Positions 8,756 to 27,451 of a stretch of DNA of 64,000 bases are shown piece after piece. The DNA lies in NCBI RefSeq assembly GCF_003334305.1, contig NZ_QOWS01000013.1; one strand, given 5' to 3'. The notes beneath the pieces were generated by a model. The model saw only the letters and a program-made list of their open reading frames with translations, was not told the origin of the DNA and made no database searches. The stretch comes from Escherichia coli (lineage in GTDB: Bacteria; Pseudomonadota; Gammaproteobacteria; Enterobacterales; Enterobacteriaceae). The stretch's first letter is position 1, and each line of letters begins with the position of its first letter. The translations under genes were made by a program, and so were the position numbers.

Positions 8756-9913
8756 TTACTTCGATGCAGTATCTGCGGGGGTATCGGTAGTGGCTTTAAC
8801 CTGCTCTCCCGGACGCGCTTTTTGCAGGCTGCTGACAATGACTTGATCGCCAGATTTCAGACCTTCGCTAATCAACCATTTATCGCCAATCGCCTGACTG
8901 GCAACGACAGGGCGCGCTTCCACCTGACTTTTATCGTTAACAATCAGCACGGTTGCATCACCACGCGGTGTGCGGCTAACGCCTTGTTGCGGGATAAGAA
9001 TGGCGTCAGGTTGGACGCCTTCATCAATCCGTGCGCGCACAAACATACCCGGCAAAAGCGTATGTTGCGGGTTAGGGAAGACGGCACGTAGGGTTATGGA
9101 GCCGGTGCTTTCATCAACGGTCACATCAGAGAATTGCAGCGTACCTTTCAGGGGATAGGTTTGACCGTTTTCCATGACCAACTCTACGTTGCTGGTGGCG
9201 TTTTCCTTATGCAAATTTCCTTGCTCTACGGATTGCTTCAGCCTCATAAAATCGTTGCTGGATTGGGTCACATCAACGTAGATAGGATCGAGCTGCTGGA
9301 CAGTCGCCAGTTCAGTCGTTTGCCCATTAGTGACAAGAGCGCCTTCGGTCACGGTCGATTTGCCGATACGTCCGCTAATTGGCGCAGTCACTTTGGTATA
9401 AGCGAGATTGATGCGAGCGCTTTCGACTGTGGCTTTTGCGGCAATCACGGCGGCATCGGCCTGGCGAGCATCAGCAATGGCCTGGTCGTACTCCTGCTGG
9501 CTGATGTATTTCGTACCCACGAGCGGAACGTAACGTTTTACCGTCAAATGCGCGATGGCGGCGGCGGCTTCACTTTTCGCCAGTTCGCCTTTCGCGCTGT
9601 CATAATTTGCCTGATAGGTCGCGGGATCGATCTGGTACAGGGACTGGCCTGCTTGTACATCGCTGCCTTCAGTGAAATTACGATTCAGTACGATCCCGCT
9701 AACCTGTGGGCGAACTTCGGCTATACGGTAAGCATTGGTGCGGCCTGGTAATTCAGTCTTAACTTCTAACGGGGCCGTTTTCACAATATGAACGGTAACC
9801 TGCGGTTCACCGACGTGAGCTTTCTCTTCTCCCTTATCGTTACAACCGGCGATTAAAGCCGCGGAGATCAGAATAAAGGAGGGCAGGAGGAAAAACCTGG
9901 CATGTTTCGTCAT
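8756..9913 (-). CDS. acrE: RND efflux periplasmic adaptor (membrane fusion) lipoprotein
   Basis: 385-aa ORF with lipobox LIAGC; AcrA-like adaptor immediately upstream of acrF. Confidence 0.95.
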   Translation of the reverse strand: MTKHARFFLLPSFILISAALIAGCNDKGEEKAHVGEPQVTVHIVKTAPLEVKTELPGRTNAYRIAEVRPQVSGIVLNRNFTEGSDVQAGQSLYQIDPATYQANYDSAKGELAKSEAAAAIAHLTVKRYVPLVGTKYISQQEYDQAIADARQADAAVIAAKATVESARINLAYTKVTAPISGRIGKSTVTEGALVTNGQTTELATVQQLDPIYVDVTQSSNDFMRLKQSVEQGNLHKENATSNVELVMENGQTYPLKGTLQFSDVTVDESTGSITLRAVFPNPQHTLLPGMFVRARIDEGVQPDAILIPQQGVSRTPRGDATVLIVNDKSQVEARPVVASQAIGDKWLISEGLKSGDQVIVSSLQKARPGEQVKATTDTPADTASK

Positions 9914-13825: not shown

Positions 13826-14707
13826 TTAATTCTTACGACCGGTAATACGGCACCACTCTTCTTTTTCCACGACCGGGTCCAGTGCGAAGCTATCGGCATA
13901 AGCTTCACAAACGCTCTCTGCCTGGCTTGCCAGAATACCGGAAAGGCCCAGCAAACCGCCTGAAACCGGCAGGACGCTGATTAACGGTGCCAGTTCACGT
14001 AATGGGCCTGCAAGGATGTTAGCGACCACCACGTCGGCTTTCATTTCTTCTGGCTGATCTTTCGGTAAGTAGAGTTCCAGACGGTCAGAAACGCCATTAC
14101 GTTCGGCGTTGTCGCGGCTGGCCTGAATCGCCTGCGGATCGATATCAATACCAATGGCTTTTGCTGCACCCAGTTTCAGCGCCGCGATCGCCAGAATGCC
14201 GGAACCACAGCCAAAGTCGATGACTGTTTTACCGGTTAAATCGAGGCTGTCGAGCCATTGCAGGCACAGAGAGGTGGTTGGATGGGTACCCGTACCAAAC
14301 GCCAGCCCTGGATCTAACATCACGTTGACGGCGTTTTCGTCCGGCACATCACGCCAGCTAGGGCAGATCCACAGTCGTTCACCAAAGCGCATCGGGTGGA
14401 AATTATCCATCCATTCGCGCTCCCAGTCTTTATCTTCTAGTTGTTCGATTTTATGCGCGAAGCCTGCGCCGAGCAGCGGATGGTTTTCCAGAATCGCCAC
14501 CACGTCGTTCATATCGGTTTCAGCGTCGAACAGACCAATCACATCGGTGTCGCCCCACAGGCGCGTTTCGCCCGGCAGCGGCTCAAATACTGGCGTATCG
14601 TGGGTATCCTGAAAAGTGATAGAAACGGCACCCGCTTCCATCAGCGCATCGCTAAGATCTTCCGCGTTCGCGCCGGTGGTGTTCAGTTTCAGTTGGATCC
14701 AAGGCAT
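13826..14707 (-). CDS. prmA: Ribosomal protein L11 methyltransferase
   Basis: 293-aa ORF with SAM-binding motif (…[20 protein letters not shown]…); between panF and dusB. Confidence 0.95.
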
Positions 14708-14718
14708 GGCAAAACTCT

Positions 14719-16170
14719 TTATTTATCAGTAGTCAAAACGGTAGCTTGCGGGACGGATGTACCGAAACGGTTTCCGACCAGGAAAGCCAGCAAACTTAGT
14801 AGTAACGAGGGCACAATAGGGTGGAAGCCCAGGTACTGAATATTCAGCGTCGCGAGTACGGCATACAGCACGCCGCCAACGATCATCGCACTTAGCGCGC
14901 CTTTGGCGTTGGCGCGTTCCCAGTAAAGACCCAGCACCAGCGGCCACAGGAAAACGGCTTCCAGCCCACCGAAGGCCAGCAAATTCAGCCAGATGATCAT
15001 TTCTGGCGGCTTCCAGGCGGCAAGCAGCAGCAACGCGCCGAGAACTAACGTAATTACCGCCGACATCCGCTTCAGACGCGTCTCGTTTTGCATTTGATCC
15101 GGACGGATATTCAGATAGAGATCTTTAATGATCGTAGCGGAACTTTGCAGCAGTTGGGCGTTAATTGTCGACATGATCGCAGCCATAGGTGCAGCCAGAA
15201 AGATCCCGGCAGCAAAAGGTGGCAGCACTTTTACCATTAACGTCGGGATCACCAGATCCGGTACGGTGAGATCGGGGATCACTGCACGACCTAACGCTCC
15301 GGCCAGGTGCATACCGAACATCAGGATTGCGACTACAATCGTACCGATGATGATCCCCCGGTGTACTGCTTTGCTGTCTTTATAAGAGATACAGCGCACC
15401 GCAGTATGCGGCAGGCCAATCACGCCAAAGCACACCAGTACCCAGAACGACGTCATAAAGGCAGGCGACAGAATATCGTCAGCGCCTTGTGGCGTAACCA
15501 GTTGCGGATCGATGGTTTGCAAGGTCTGTACTGCGTTGCTTAAGCCGCCAGCGGCATGTACCACGCCAATAAGCAGCACAACGGTGCCAATCAGCATCAC
15601 AAGCCCTTGCATGGTGTCGTTCAGCACGCTGGCGCGAAAGCCACCAAAGGCGGTATATAACGCAATGCTGATACCAAAAATCAGCAGCCCGGTTTCATAA
15701 GGAATACCCGCCGCGGTTTCCAGCAGGCGCGCACCGCCGATAAACTGCACGGTCATCGCACCAACGAACGCAACCAGCAAACTCAAACTCGCCAGCCACA
15801 CCAGAAGACGACTCTGGTAGCGGGCAAACAGCATATCGTTCAGCGTCACTGCATTGTAGCGGCGCGCAAGAATCGCAAACTTCTTGCCGAGAATACCGAG
15901 TGAAAGCCAGACTGCAGGAAGCTGAATCATCGCCAGCAATACCCAGCCCAGGCCGTATTTATAAGCAGCTCCTGGCCCGCCGATAAACGAACTGGCACTG
16001 ATATAGGTCGCGGTGAGCGTCATCGCCAGCACAATACCGCCCATAGAGCGGCTGCCGAGGAAATACTCATTAAGGAAGGTGCCGGTGCTCCGTTTACGCA
16101 TCGCATAAACAGAGATACCGAACACCACCACCAGATAGGCGACCAGCGGTAGAATTACTTCAAGCTGCAT
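14719..16170 (-). CDS. panF: Sodium/pantothenate symporter
   Basis: Polytopic SSS-family transporter ORF; start set at [13 protein letters not shown]… (track ORF two codons longer). Confidence 0.94.
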
Positions 16171-16402
16171 CGTCATCCTCCAGTGGGATATCGCGATAGA
16201 TAAATTTCACCATCGCCCAGCACAGTCCAATAAACAGTAGCGGCGTCAGGATGCAGGCCATCTCAAACCAGCGCGGAAAGCCGGTAAAACCGGGGGCAAC
16301 GCCAGGTAAGTAAGCGGCTACTAACCAAACTGCCAGATACAAAAGGGTCAGCCCCAGCGCCCAGCGCGCCTCTTTATGGGCCTGAACAAAACGAGTGTCC
16401 AT
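16160..16402 (-). CDS. yhdT: Small inner-membrane protein (DUF997)
   Basis: 80-aa two-TM ORF overlapping the panF start, downstream of accC. Confidence 0.85.
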   Translation of the reverse strand: MDTRFVQAHKEARWALGLTLLYLAVWLVAAYLPGVAPGFTGFPRWFEMACILTPLLFIGLCWAMVKFIYRDIPLEDDDAA

Positions 16403-16468
16403 TTTTTGTCCCTGATGGGTGAAGAAAGCGAGGATTGTACCTTATGGGGGTTGTCGATCCCCAGTAAT

Positions 16469-16500
16469 AAAAAAGGCCGGAAAATCCGGCCTTTTGACGC
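16469..16500 (-). terminator. Hairpin terminator/attenuator 3' of accC
   Basis: Hairpin GGCCGGATTTTCCGGCC followed by a T-run when read on the minus strand, just 3' of the accC stop. Confidence 0.6.
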
Positions 16501-16510
16501 TTTTGCAGTC

Positions 16511-17860
16511 TTATTTTTCCTGAAGACCGAGTTTTTTCTCCAGATAGTGGATGTTAGTGCCACCATGCTGGAAGTTCTCGTCATTCATGATGCGGATCTG
16601 CAGATCAACGTTGGTTTTGATACCGTCGATGATCAGCTCCTGCAGCGCATTCTTCATGCGAGCAATCGCCACGTCACGGTTTTCACCGTAGCAAATCAGC
16701 TTACCGATCATTGAGTCATAGTACGGCGGTACGGTGTAGCCCGCGTAGATATGAGACTCCCAACGCACTCCAAAACCGCCAGGTGCGTGGAAACGGGTGA
16801 TTTTGCCTGGGCTTGGCAGGAAGGTGTTCGGATCTTCGGCGTTGATACGACATTCCACCGCATGGCCGCGAACGTGAACTTCTTCTTGCTTGATCGACAG
16901 CGGTTGACCGGCAGCGATACGCAGCTGTTCTTTGATCAGGTCAACGCCGGTGATCATTTCTGTAACCGGGTGTTCTACCTGAATACGGGTGTTCATTTCG
17001 ATGAAATAGAACTCGCCGTTTTCGAACAGGAACTCGAAAGTACCTGCACCGCGATAGCCGATATCAACACACGCTTTAGCACAACGTTCGCCGATGTAGC
17101 GACGCAGTTCCGGTGTAATTCCCGGTGCTGGTGCTTCTTCGACCACTTTCTGGTGACGACGCTGCATAGAGCAGTCACGTTCCGCCAGATAGATAGCGTT
17201 GCCCTGACCGTCAGCCAGTACCTGAATCTCGACGTGGCGAGGATTTTCCAGGTATTTCTCCATGTAAACCATATCGTTATTGAATGCGGCTTTCGCTTCC
17301 GCACGGGTCATGGAGATGGATTGTGCCAGTTCAGCGTCGCCGCGCACTACACGCATACCACGACCGCCGCCGCCGCCGGAGGCTTTGATAATCACCGGAT
17401 AACCTATGCGTTTAGCAATGGCACGGTTTTTATCCATATCGTCGCCCAGCGGGCCGTCAGAACCTGGTACGCAAGGAACGCCCGCTTTTTTCATCGCCGC
17501 GATTGCCGACACTTTGTCACCCATCAGGCGAATAGTGTCTGCTTTCGGGCCAATGAAGATAAAGCCGGAGCGTTCAACCTGCTCGGCAAAGTTGGCGTTC
17601 TCGGAGAGGAAGCCGTAACCCGGATGGATTGCTACTGCGCCGGTGATTTCAGCGGCGCTTATGATTGCCGGGATGTTCAGATAACTTTTTACTGACGGAG
17701 CAGGGCCAATACAGACCGTTTCATCTGCCAGTAATACGTGTTTTAGATCGCGATCCGCGCTGGAGTGCACAGCGACAGTCTTGATGCCCAGTTCTTTACA
17801 GGCACGAAGAATACGCAATGCAATCTCGCCGCGGTTGGCAATAACAATTTTATCCAGCAT
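16511..17860 (-). CDS. accC: Biotin carboxylase subunit of acetyl-CoA carboxylase
   Basis: ATP-grasp biotin carboxylase; start set at [33 protein letters not shown]… (track ORF extended by 13 codons). Confidence 0.97.
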
Positions 17861-17870
17861 GTTCGCCTCG

Positions 17871-18341
17871 TTACTCGATGACGACCAGCGGCTCGTCAAA
17901 TTCTACCGGTTGTCCACTTTCGACCAGAATTGCTTTCACGGTACCGGATTTGTCCGCTTCGATCTGGTTCATCATTTTCATGGCTTCAACGATGCACAGG
18001 GTATCGCCCACGTTGACTTTCTGACCCACTTCGATGAACGCTTTTGCGTCCGGGCTTGGGGTGCGGTAGAAAGTACCAACCATCGGGGAGCGTACGATGT
18101 GACCACTGATTTCCGCTGCTGCTGGCGCTTCCATGGAAGGAACGGTCGCCGGAGCGGCTGCGTTAGATTGAGCTGGCTGCTGCATCATTGGTGCAGCGTA
18201 AGCTTGTTGCATCACAGGGAAACTTGCGGCAGGAGCTGCACGGCTGATGCGTACTGACTCTTCGCCTTCGGAGATTTCCAGTTCGGAGATGCCTGATTCT
18301 TCAACCAGCTCGATCAGTTTTTTAATCTTACGAATATCCAT
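17871..18341 (-). CDS. accB: Biotin carboxyl carrier protein
   Basis: 156-aa ORF with Ala/Pro-rich linker and biotinylation motif [10 protein letters not shown]. Confidence 0.98.
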
Positions 18342-23798: not shown

Positions 23799-25390
<1,592 letters not shown>

Positions 25391-25398
25391 AGGTTTCT

Positions 25399-25992
25399 AT
25401 GACTTCTCTGTATTTAGCTTCCGGTTCTCCGCGTCGTCAGGAGTTACTTGCGCAACTTGGCGTGACCTTTGAACGTATTGTTACGGGCATTGAGGAGCAG
25501 CGTCAGCCGCAGGAGAGCGCGCAGCAGTATGTTGTGCGTCTGGCGCGCGAGAAAGCACAGGCGGGTGTCGCGCAAACGGCGCAGGATCTCCCGGTGCTGG
25601 GTGCGGATACTATCGTTATCCTGAATGGAGAAGTGCTGGAGAAACCGCGCGACGCAGAGCATGCGGCGCAGATGTTGCGCAAATTATCGGGTCAGACCCA
25701 TCAGGTGATGACGGCAGTGGCGTTGGCCGACAGCCAGCACATTCTCGATTGCCTGGTGGTCACCGATGTGACTTTCAGAACGTTAACAGACGAAGACATC
25801 GCGGGCTATGTCGCCAGCGGTGAACCGTTAGATAAAGCAGGTGCATACGGTATTCAGGGGCTGGGTGGCTGTTTTGTCAGGAAGATAAATGGCAGCTATC
25901 ACGCCGTAGTCGGCTTACCGCTGGTTGAAACGTATGAATTATTAAGTAATTTTAACGCACTGCGTGAGAAAAGGGATAAACATGACGGCTGA
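25399..25992 (+). CDS. yhdE: Maf-family nucleoside triphosphate pyrophosphatase
   Basis: 197-aa [28 protein letters not shown]… Maf signature. Confidence 0.95.
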
Positions 25993-27451
25993 ATTGTTAG
26001 TAAACGTAACGCCTTCGGAAACGCGAGTGGCGTATATTGATGGCGGTATTCTGCAGGAAATTCATATTGAACGTGAGGCGCGACGCGGAATAGTAGGCAA
26101 TATCTACAAGGGTCGTGTAAGTCGTGTACTTCCGGGTATGCAGGCGGCTTTTGTAGATATTGGGCTGGATAAAGCCGCGTTTCTTCATGCATCCGATATC
26201 ATGCCGCACACCGAATGTGTGGCGGGTGAAGAACAAAAGCAATTCACGGTGCGCGACATCTCGGAACTGGTTCGTCAGGGGCAAGATCTGATGGTGCAGG
26301 TGGTGAAAGATCCGCTTGGCACTAAAGGTGCGCGCCTGACCACCGATATCACGCTGCCTTCTCGCTATCTGGTGTTTATGCCAGGGGCTTCTCACGTTGG
26401 GGTTTCCCAACGTATTGAAAGCGAATCAGAACGTGAACGCCTGAAAAAAGTGGTCGCAGAGTATTGCGACGAGCAGGGCGGGTTTATCATCCGTACCGCA
26501 GCGGAAGGGGTTGGCGAGGCTGAACTGGCCTCCGATGCCGCTTATCTGAAACGCGTCTGGACCAAAGTTATGGAGCGTAAAAAACGCCCGCAGACCCGTT
26601 ATCAGCTGTACGGCGAACTGGCGCTGGCGCAGCGTGTTCTGCGTGATTTCGCCGACGCCGAACTGGACCGCATTCGCGTTGACTCACGCCTGACTTACGA
26701 AGCATTGCTGGAGTTTACCTCGGAGTACATTCCCGAGATGACCAGCAAGCTGGAGCATTACACCGGACGCCAGCCGATTTTCGATCTCTTTGATGTCGAA
26801 AACGAAATCCAGCGAGCGCTGGAACGCAAAGTAGAACTGAAATCCGGTGGTTATCTGATTATCGACCAGACCGAAGCGATGACCACCGTGGACATCAATA
26901 CCGGAGCGTTTGTCGGTCATCGCAATCTGGACGACACCATTTTCAATACCAATATTGAAGCGACGCAGGCTATCGCTCGCCAGTTACGGTTGCGTAATCT
27001 GGGTGGGATTATCATTATTGATTTCATCGATATGAATAATGAAGATCACCGCCGCCGCGTGCTGCACTCGCTGGAGCAGGCGTTGAGCAAAGACCGGGTG
27101 AAAACCAGCGTTAATGGTTTTTCGGCGCTGGGGCTGGTGGAGATGACGCGTAAACGCACCCGCGAAAGCATTGAGCACGTACTGTGTAACGAATGCCCAA
27201 CCTGCCACGGTCGCGGAACGGTGAAAACCGTGGAAACGGTATGCTATGAAATCATGCGCGAGATTGTTCGTGTCCACCATGCTTACGACTCCGACCGTTT
27301 CCTGGTCTATGCTTCTCCGGCAGTAGCTGAAGCCTTGAAAGGCGAAGAGTCACACTCGCTGGCGGAAGTGGAAATTTTCGTTGGTAAACAGGTTAAAGTA
27401 CAAATTGAACCGCTCTATAACCAGGAGCAGTTTGACGTCGTAATGATGTAA
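25982..27451 (+). CDS. rng: Ribonuclease G
   Basis: RNase E/G catalytic-domain homologue; start set at [22 protein letters not shown]… (489 aa), overlapping the yhdE 3' end. Confidence 0.96.

Follow-up and report, generated by a model that had tools for sequence, protein, structure and literature searches.

Do overlapping start and stop codons link the translation of neighbouring Escherichia coli genes, or are they neutral by-products of compact operons? We addressed this question for a 64,000-nucleotide stretch of E. coli DNA (the window), for which an initial annotation made from the sequence had listed five such overlaps and suggested translational coupling. The RefSeq/PGAP annotation was mapped onto the window (positions 14000 to 18000 are 100% identical to E. 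coli chromosomes), and the bases of each junction were read directly. All five overlaps are present where they had been placed: yhdT/panF (11 nt), mreC/mreD (1 nt), yhdE/rng (11 nt), nanE/nanK (4 nt) and nanK/nanQ, the latter gene also named yhcH (4 nt). NCBIfam and PGAP agree that each junction lies between two real genes on the same strand, and all nine encoded proteins score above the cut-offs of NCBIfam equivalog or subfamily models, with matches that begin at profile positions 1 to 4. The downstream start lies no later than the final base of the upstream stop codon for panF, mreD, rng and nanK, and also for nanQ if the annotated first ATG is used. The five junctions are almost certainly real overlaps that use the annotated start codons.

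No further overlapping pair was found among the annotated same-strand genes of the window. The window has 39 pairs of neighbours on the same strand, of which 5 overlap (13%). Likewise 5 of the 39 have a spacing between -8 and +6, a band that contains 707 of 2,987 pairs (24%) in the E. coli K-12 genome (PMC10666635). Overlaps are thus no commoner in the window than across the genome, and for these 39 pairs an enrichment versus K-12 was not found. The junctions are routine bacterial operon architecture without a special element. All five are already catalogued for K-12 with the same spacings (nanK/yhcH -4, nanE/nanK -4, yhdE/rng -11, mreC/mreD -1, yhdT/panF -11; PMC10666635); the window comes from a different E. 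coli strain and nothing differs.

The gene yhdT (16160..16402, minus strand) encodes a small membrane protein of 80 amino acids (YhdT/DUF997), which matches NCBIfam NF007918 from end to end, and ends with the stop TGA at 16162-16160. It is followed by panF (14719..16170, minus strand) for the sodium/pantothenate symporter of 483 amino acids, of which residues 4-471 match positions 2-469 of the 471 in TIGR02119. The annotated panF start is the ATG at 16170-16168. The overlap ATGCAGCTTGA (16160..16170, minus strand) serves as the last 11 bases of yhdT and, with the reading frame shifted by one base, as the first 11 of panF; the supplement of PMC10666635 gives this spacing as -11 in K-12. A second in-frame ATG is located two codons upstream (16174..16176, minus strand) and would lengthen the overlap to 17 nt. 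The predicted range of about 11 to 17 nt is accordingly correct, and the interval given for it, 16160-16176, is exactly the maximal overlap. The upstream ATG directly adjoins the Shine-Dalgarno (SD) motif GGAGG with a spacer of 0 nt, and it is ATG in 28 of 35 species, ATA in six and ACG in one. It is probably not the main start. The annotated ATG is kept in 35 of 35 Enterobacteriaceae, as is the spacing of -11, and the bases within the overlap vary among species despite this constant spacing. In the downstream direction no in-frame panF start is present before codon 13.

The panF SD (16177..16181, minus strand) lies within the yhdT codons for Leu-Glu-Asp and is separated by 6 nt from the ATG at 16170. 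Its duplex with the anti-SD has an energy of -9.3 kcal/mol, which places it in the top 0.14% of intragenic 20-mers. The Glu codon that forms the motif is GAG in 31 of 31 distinct sequences; adjacent synonymous sites vary.

At the second junction, mreC (23799..24902, plus strand) and mreD (24902..25390, plus strand) share a single base at 24902 in the sequence TAGTG (24900..24904, plus strand). The GTG start of mreD is kept in 42 of 42 Enterobacteriaceae, and no in-frame start follows before codon 20. The spacing is -1 in 33 of 41 species and 0 (TAAGTG) in eight species of the Citrobacter freundii group, owing to one-base indels. The mreD SD GGAGG (24891..24895, plus strand; -10.8 kcal/mol, top 0.07%) is located inside the mreC 3' end and is retained though the mreC tail upstream of it diverges strongly between genera. 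MreC/MreD is the one pair marked as a protein complex in PMC10666635; the other four are marked as not forming one.

The third junction joins yhdE (25399..25992, plus strand; stop TGA 25990-25992) to rng (25982..27451, plus strand; start ATG 25982-25984), which overlap in ATGACGGCTGA (25982..25992, plus strand). The rng start ATG is invariant in 43 of 43 species. The spacing is -11 in 38 of 44 species, +2 in five Klebsiella species that carry one-base indels, and +36 in Enterobacter sp. EA-1; the latter has indels that resemble frameshifts at several junctions, and its assembly was left out as unreliable. An SD-like AAGGG (25971..25975, plus strand) precedes the start by 6 nt and is weak (-5.1 kcal/mol, 13th percentile of the intragenic background). 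An alternative in-frame GTG six codons upstream (25964..25966, plus strand) would add the residues MRKGIN and extend the overlap to 29 nt. This codon has no SD (-0.1 kcal/mol) and is GTG in 31 of 43 species, GCG in seven and an in-frame TGA in five Klebsiella species, and is thus lost in 12 of 43. A further candidate start, TTG, is present at 25994. A longer form of RNase G beginning with MRKGIN was reportedly described in 2003. An 'extended form of RNase G' is mentioned indirectly as an experimental construct. As the main native product, an MRKGIN-extended RNase G is opposed both by conservation and by the N-terminomics table. An N-terminal peptide, Ribo-RET and INRI-seq in the supplement of PMC13245402 confirm the annotated start, and no peptide of an extended form is found among the N-terminomics entries listed there.

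The remaining two junctions follow one another in the nan operon, with nanE at 52460..53149, nanK at 53146..54021 and nanQ at 54018..54482 (all plus strand). The nanE stop and the nanK start form ATGA (53146..53149, plus strand), as had been proposed for a site near 53146. This ATGA is kept in all five other enterobacterial loci in which nanE lies upstream. The DIGGT kinase motif of NanK begins at residue 7, and no in-frame start was found within 30 codons downstream. A TTG at 53107 and a GTG at 53113 are additional candidate starts of nanK. The nanK SD, AAGGCGGTG, ranks within the top 1% of the intragenic background.

The nanK stop TGA (54019-54021) is straddled by three tandem in-frame nanQ ATGs (54018, 54021 and 54024; 54018..54026, plus strand), which result in a nanK/nanQ spacing of -4, -1 or +2. 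With the annotated ATG at 54018 the junction is again a 4-nt ATGA, at the place proposed for nanK/yhcH. The statement that the start codon chosen sets the overlap is correct for the two junctions for which it was made, yhdT/panF and yhdE/rng; a third ambiguous case, nanQ, had been missed. The nanQ SD GGGAG (54006-54010, plus strand) precedes the ATG at 54018 by 7 nt. In eight of eight sequences compared, an ATG is located exactly 7 nt past GGGAG, and the nanK/nanQ spacing floats among relatives between -4, -1 and +2.

All five upstream genes thus contain SD motifs: GGAGG for panF and mreD, GGGAG for nanQ, the motif given above for nanK, and the weak AAGGG for rng. The motifs of panF, mreD and nanQ are conserved. 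Ranking the anti-SD duplex energy against random intragenic 20-mers placed the embedded SDs of panF, mreD, nanK and nanQ in the top 0.07-1%, and that of rng at the 13th percentile. Stable local RNA structure was not found at any of the five starts when 106-nt windows were compared with dinucleotide shuffles (z of -0.11, +0.62, +1.01, -0.69 and -0.20). Bases of the ribosome binding sites (RBSs) are unpaired with a mean probability of 0.34-0.54, similar to those in the rest of each 106-nt window.

This architecture makes translational coupling at the five junctions plausible. The downstream RBS, with its SD 6-7 nt before the start, is contained in the final codons of the gene upstream, and downstream translation very probably begins at the annotated start. 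A ribosome that ends the upstream gene would terminate within a few bases of this start; its 30S subunit could be held there by SD/anti-SD pairing and re-initiate. The same SD would also be open to fresh ribosomes. Since re-initiation and fresh loading would both contribute, the output of the two genes would be partly linked. We consider it likely that all five are operon junctions of this same kind, with annotated starts, embedded SDs and output partly linked through both routes.

A search of the literature found no published coupling experiment on any of the five pairs. Five native E. coli pairs with a spacing of -4 have been tested (hyfHI, astDB, ydbH/ynbE, menDH and bioBF), of which four showed coupling; an influence of the SD was seen in four of the five (Huber et al., 2019; PMC6728339). 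The junctions nanE/nanK and nanK/nanQ share with hyfHI, astDB, ydbH/ynbE as well as menDH both the ATGA and an SD inside the upstream gene. The mreC/mreD junction differs from these pairs and has the second commonest architecture, -1; spacings of -4 and -1 are the commonest in E. coli (PMC10666635). Unlike the tested pairs, yhdT/panF and yhdE/rng have a longer overlap of -11. Huber et al. (2023) predicted re-initiation for spacings between -8 and +10 (PMC10666635); mreC/mreD (-1), nanE/nanK (-4) and nanK/nanQ (-4) fall inside this range and the two -11 pairs outside it. In a systematic study coupling efficiency was alike from -4 to +3 and dropped as overlaps exceeded -4, which fits the floating spacing of nanK/nanQ (-4/-1/+2) and mreC/mreD (-1/0). 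A material contribution of re-initiation seems rather probable where the spacing is -4 or -1. For the two -11 pairs it may also occur, and there we lean slightly against it.

The alternative that survives best is that no functional coupling exists: downstream genes would be translated by fresh SD-bound ribosomes only, and the overlaps would be neutral products of drifting stops and starts in compact operons. In favour of this, four junctions have strong SDs at the canonical spacing of 6-7 nt and the local structure is not unusually stable, so that fresh ribosomes could load unaided; the overlaps are not enriched in the window; and bioBF, although a native -4 pair, is initiated de novo (PMC6728339). 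The rng start is active in cell-free INRI-seq (PMC13245402) on an isolated template that extends just 30 nt upstream and from which yhdE is not translated, so coupling is not obligatory at yhdE/rng. Furthermore, the spacing drifts among relatives (-4, -1, 0 and +2), and the overlap is lost at yhdE/rng in Klebsiella (+2) and at mreC/mreD in the C. freundii group (0), which suggests that the overlap itself is not essential there. Yet these two spacings, like every drifted one, remain inside the narrow range of efficient coupling. The yhdT/panF spacing is constant while the overlap bases vary, the weak rng SD would make it more likely that rng relies in vivo on ribosomes from upstream, and most of the native -4 pairs tested were coupled. 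Taken together, a complete lack of coupling appears somewhat unlikely.

Coupling might also operate by RNA unfolding, in which a base-paired downstream RBS is opened only by translation of the upstream gene. This mode is recognised for atpHA and rplJL (PMC6728339) and is one of two models in a 2025 review. Our five pairs resemble atpHA and rplJL in being co-directional operon neighbours with the downstream RBS in or next to the upstream gene. They differ from them in that no stable local structure masks the five RBSs: the local 106-nt folds match their shuffles (z between -0.7 and +1.0) and the RBSs are no more paired than their surroundings, which makes unfolding an improbable explanation, in contrast to the re-initiation with additional fresh loading that we prefer.

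Least probable is that the overlaps are annotation artefacts, with true starts downstream or upstream or two N-terminal forms made from rng or panF: candidate codons exist (panF ATG 16176; rng GTG 25964 and TTG 25994; nanK TTG 53107 and GTG 53113; nanQ ATG 54021 and 54024), an extended RNase G has served as a construct in experiments, and N-terminomics shows closely spaced alternative starts to be common in E. coli, but the rng peptide maps to the annotated ATG, the rng GTG and the panF ATG (lost in 7 of 35) are poorly conserved, upstream alternatives have no SDs of their own, downstream starts would remove conserved N-terminal segments of panF, mreD and nanK, and the uncertain choice among the nanQ ATGs leaves the spacing at -4 to +2 in each case. 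The rng GTG at 25964 and the panF ATG at 16176 are neither conserved as second in-frame starts nor provided with an RBS of their own, and for rng no extended-form peptide is among the entries listed. The gene names and b-numbers of panF, yhdT, mreD, nanK and yhcH have no entry among the N-terminomics and INRI-seq supplement rows listed; these encode membrane proteins or are uninduced genes. The caution that mapped starts might remove the overlaps is answered in favour of the annotated starts, by conservation for panF, mreD and rng and by peptide, Ribo-RET and INRI-seq for rng, and the overlaps stand.

The overlaps confirm the soundness of the annotated panF, rng, mreD, nanK and nanQ starts and have small import beyond annotation. 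In practice, indels in yhdT, mreC, yhdE, nanE or nanK disturb the RBS and the initial codons of the gene that follows, a caveat for knockout phenotypes of overlapping genes that has already been invoked for yhdT/panF. Like deletion of panF, deletion of yhdT is synthetically lethal with every pantothenate-biosynthesis gene, which the authors attribute to panF disruption.

Whether the invariant yhdT/panF junction marks a functional partnership of the two proteins is a question of modest interest. Small membrane-protein genes are also located directly upstream of other sodium/solute symporters. YhdT could be an obligate small partner of PanF, as a subunit or assembly factor, with the -11 overlap and the constrained SD coupling synthesis and co-insertion of both membrane proteins. 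This reading is compatible with a spacing that does not change in any of the 35 species while the overlap bases do, with the overlap of the gene pair across 134 genomes (PMC10666635) and with the yhdT deletion phenotype described above; we hold it to be speculative and rather unlikely. Hundreds of genomes contain overlaps between the genes for YhdT and PanF, MreC and MreD, and Maf and RNase G (PMC10666635). The values given there, which we read as a central value and its spread, are -7.05, -11 and -4 for YhdT@PanF (134 genomes), -4, -4 and -1 for MreC@MreD (496 genomes) and -4, -4 and +34 for Maf@CafA (413 genomes).

The arrangement of panF in the +1 frame, with the yhdT stop UGA and an SD upstream, raised the idea of a programmed +1 frameshift that fuses YhdT to PanF. 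This was rejected from the sequence: re-pairing of the last sense codon GCU is not possible on CUU, the codon of the +1 frame, and 11 nt separate it from the SD, versus about 3 nt between SD and shift codon at the prfB frameshift site. A consensus scan for a promoter between accC and yhdT gave no match. The scan for terminators identified a terminator-like hairpin with a T-run after accC and upstream of yhdT (16471..16495, minus strand), by pattern match only, which suggests that yhdT-panF is transcribed apart from accBC.

The five gene overlaps claimed by the initial annotation are all present at its positions, as read directly in the sequence. On the minus strand, yhdT ends with TGA (16162-16160) and panF starts with ATG (16170-16168), 11 nt being shared (ATGCAGCTTGA); an alternative ATG at 16176-16174 would extend the overlap to 17 nt, and the interval singled out earlier (16160-16176) is exactly this maximal overlap. 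The other four are on the plus strand. mreC and mreD share 1 nt (TAGTG; the TAG ends at 24902, where the GTG begins), and there is no alternative start. yhdE, a Maf family gene, ends with a TGA at 25992, and rng, the gene for RNase G, starts with ATG at 25982, giving 11 shared nt (ATGACGGCTGA); the alternative GTG at 25964 would give a 29 nt overlap and add MRKGIN to the protein. nanE/nanK (TGA ending at 53149, ATG at 53146, no plausible alternative) and nanK/nanQ (yhcH; TGA ending at 54021, ATG at 54018) each share the 4 nt ATGA, and the nanQ alternatives ATG 54021 and ATG 54024 correspond to spacings of -1 and +2 (negative values are overlaps).

No further same-strand overlaps were found among the annotated pairs in the window, and at the other operon junctions the genes are separated by a short +5 to +15 nt. 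Overlap occurs in five of the 39 neighbouring pairs on the same strand. Spacings from -8 to +6 also occur in 5/39 pairs (13%), compared with 707 of 2,987 pairs (24%) genome-wide in E. coli K-12 (PMC10666635); the overlap count is not above chance. The junctions are identical to those that Huber et al. (2023) list for K-12 in their supplementary tables: nanK/yhcH -4, nanE/nanK -4, yhdE/rng -11, mreC/mreD -1 (marked as complex) and yhdT/panF -11. Since all five were already tabulated, the overlaps are known and ordinary. The cross-genome table of the same study lists three distances per pair, which we take as central value and spread: -7.05, -11 and -4 nt for YhdT@PanF (134 genomes), -4, -4 and -1 nt for MreC@MreD (496 genomes), and -4, -4 and +34 nt for Maf@RNase G (413 genomes).

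The downstream genes start at codons that are led by a Shine-Dalgarno (SD) motif and set within the upstream genes. SD strength was calculated as the pairing energy of the 20 nt before the annotated start with the 16S rRNA 3′ terminus, and the background as the share that reached this energy or a lower one in a set of 2,950 random intragenic 20-mers. The duplex is strongest for mreD (-10.8 kcal/mol; background share 0.07%), followed by panF (-9.3; 0.14%), nanK (-8.4; 0.9%), nanQ (-8.2; 1.0%) and rng (-5.1; 13%). No comparable anti-SD pairing was found before rng GTG 25964 or nanK TTG 53107.

Starts further downstream are contradicted for rng by an N-terminal peptide: in the available part of a 2026 E. 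coli N-terminomics table (PMC13245402), the RNase G peptide is assigned to the annotated ATG, in an identical surrounding sequence and with additional support from Ribo-RET and INRI-seq. The starts of yhdE and mreC are also confirmed there; for panF, yhdT, mreD, nanK and yhcH no entries are listed in the available parts of this table or of the INRI-seq supplement. For panF, mreD, nanK and nanQ, conservation makes downstream starts unlikely. The first downstream in-frame candidates are not reached before codon 13 in panF and codon 20 in mreD, and nanK has none within 30 codons, its DIGGT kinase motif being at residue 7. Where such alternatives exist, they would cost conserved N-terminal segments. 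NCBIfam alignments of nine proteins with annotated starts begin at profile positions 1-4, an agreement that is partly circular where models were built from enterobacterial sequences.

Upstream starts were compared across 49 loci from Enterobacteriaceae, each taken with 10 kb on either side of csrD, a span that covers three junctions; genes were placed by tblastn before the junctions were compared. Locus L051 (Enterobacter sp. EA-1, CP025776.1, labelled as a complete genome) was left out of the counts. It carries frameshift-like indels at several junctions and inside genes (panF, yhdE and mreD regions), which suggests an error-prone assembly. The annotated panF ATG and the -11 spacing are both kept in 35/35 species; the upstream ATG (16176) occurs in 28 of the 35, the codon being ATA in six and ACG in one. 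In E. coli GGAGG directly adjoins this upstream ATG without a spacer, and the annotated ATG is 6 nt downstream of GGAGG. The annotated rng ATG is likewise retained (43/43); where E. coli has the upstream GTG, seven species have GCG and five Klebsiella (L033, L036, L037, L044, L049; junction region corresponding to window 25964-25992) have an in-frame TGA as a result of a one-base insertion, which also shifts the yhdE stop upstream (TAA) and turns the -11 overlap into a +2 gap. The annotated codons are thus very probably the starts used, and the dependence on start choice raised by the initial annotation for yhdT/panF and yhdE/rng is settled by conservation and the rng peptide.

The mreD GTG is kept in 42/42, with GGAGG or GGGGG retained 6-7 nt upstream, and the preceding mreC tail is barely alignable between genera. 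In eight Citrobacter freundii-group species (L011, L013, L015, L017, L018, L041, L045, L047), insertion of a single base in the region corresponding to window 24895-24904 changes the spacing to 0 (TAAGTG) and the SD-to-GTG spacer to 7 nt instead of 6.

yhdT/panF is the only invariant junction of the five. The Glu codon of yhdT in the panF SD is GAG throughout the 31 distinct sequences, and nearby synonymous sites vary (ATT/ATC 19:12, four Pro codons, GAC/GAT 20:5), which indicates selection on the embedded SD. The unchanging junction, this synonymous constraint and the deep synteny of the pair would fit a role of YhdT as functional partner of PanF with deliberately linked synthesis, a tentative and rather doubtful suggestion. 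A genetic-interaction study mentions the overlap and found that yhdT deletion acted like panF deletion, which its authors put down to disrupted panF.

The nan junctions were compared using loci of seven NanK homologues (77-92% identity). The nanE/nanK ATGA is retained in all five loci with nanE upstream. At nanK/nanQ, three tandem in-frame ATGs span the nanK stop in the window (54018-54026; 54006-54026 with the SD), and two or three do so in every relative. In 8/8 enterobacterial sequences (the window and L052-L058, around position 2870) one ATG is exactly 7 nt past a conserved GGGAG. The spacing of this ATG is -4 in Escherichia, -1 in Kluyvera, a K. oxytoca-labelled contig, C. amalonaticus and C. 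koseri, and +2 in a C. portucalensis-like contig and a Salmonella Saintpaul locus, which points to the SD-to-start distance as the conserved quantity, the stop-to-start distance floating within -4 to +2. In the latter two loci (L053, L054) nanK follows nanT after 80-96 nt without nanE, and GGCGGTG..ATGACC still precedes nanK (positions about 1900-2010); this resembles a leftover of the 3′ end of nanE that may have been kept as nanK ribosome-binding site. One entry of the homologue search (P0099), predicted from a 2-kb contig, is a 364-aa protein that combines a ROK kinase domain with a YhcH domain. It is called as a NanK-NanQ fusion, most likely because the frame shifts or the sequence is in error at the ATGA junction.

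The initial annotation had the operon architecture right, and the translational coupling it proposed is plausible at the five junctions. Coupling by RNA unfolding is not supported locally, since unusually stable structure was found at none of them (z -0.69 to +1.01; unpaired probability of the ribosome-binding sites 0.34-0.54). In termination-reinitiation, a ribosome terminating at the upstream stop would cover the downstream start; the small subunit, held by the SD after release, could move back 1-8 nt to bring the start codon into the P site, and fresh ribosomes could load at that SD as well. Published work supports coupling at short overlaps and more weakly at -11: the commonest E. coli spacings are -4 and -1, native -4 pairs were coupled in 4/5 cases, with SD removal lowering re-initiation in 4/5, and efficiency was flat between -4 and +3; in one systematic study longer overlaps gave less coupling, and the predictive re-initiation range of -8 to +10 leaves out -11. 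Coupling is not obligatory for rng, whose start is marked as detected by INRI-seq (PMC13245402 table). As these templates contain only 30 nt upstream and lack upstream translation, independent initiation at rng is possible.

Annotation was transferred to window coordinates, coding sequence by coding sequence, from the RefSeq record of one identical strain; all mapped genes have a start codon, a terminal stop and no internal stop. Several complete E. coli chromosomes match the 4 kb around yhdT/panF with 100% identity, and a search of 5,426 E. coli genomes found this stretch in all of them. Genes follow in the order yhdWXYZ, acrEF, acrS, fis-dusB, prmA-panF-yhdT, accBC, acuI, csrD, mreBCD-yhdE-rng, yhdP, tldD, aaeRXAB, argR, mdh, degSQ, zapGE, rplM-rpsI, sspAB, dcuC, nanRATEK-nanQ, gltDB, yhcC. 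In the otherwise identical reference NZ_CP019250.1, acrE is split by an IS1 insertion (8944-9713 of the reference locus); in the window it is an intact 385-aa reading frame (8756-9913). Directly between nanQ and gltD the window carries a transposase gene (54558-55359), followed at the corresponding position of the reference-strain annotation by a truncated DUF1016 (yhcG-like) gene. K-12 carries additional genes in this interval, which suggests a strain-specific rearrangement. A further start-site choice concerns gltB on the minus strand, annotated from 61434 (1,486 aa), with a frame that reaches ATG 61542 (1,522 aa).
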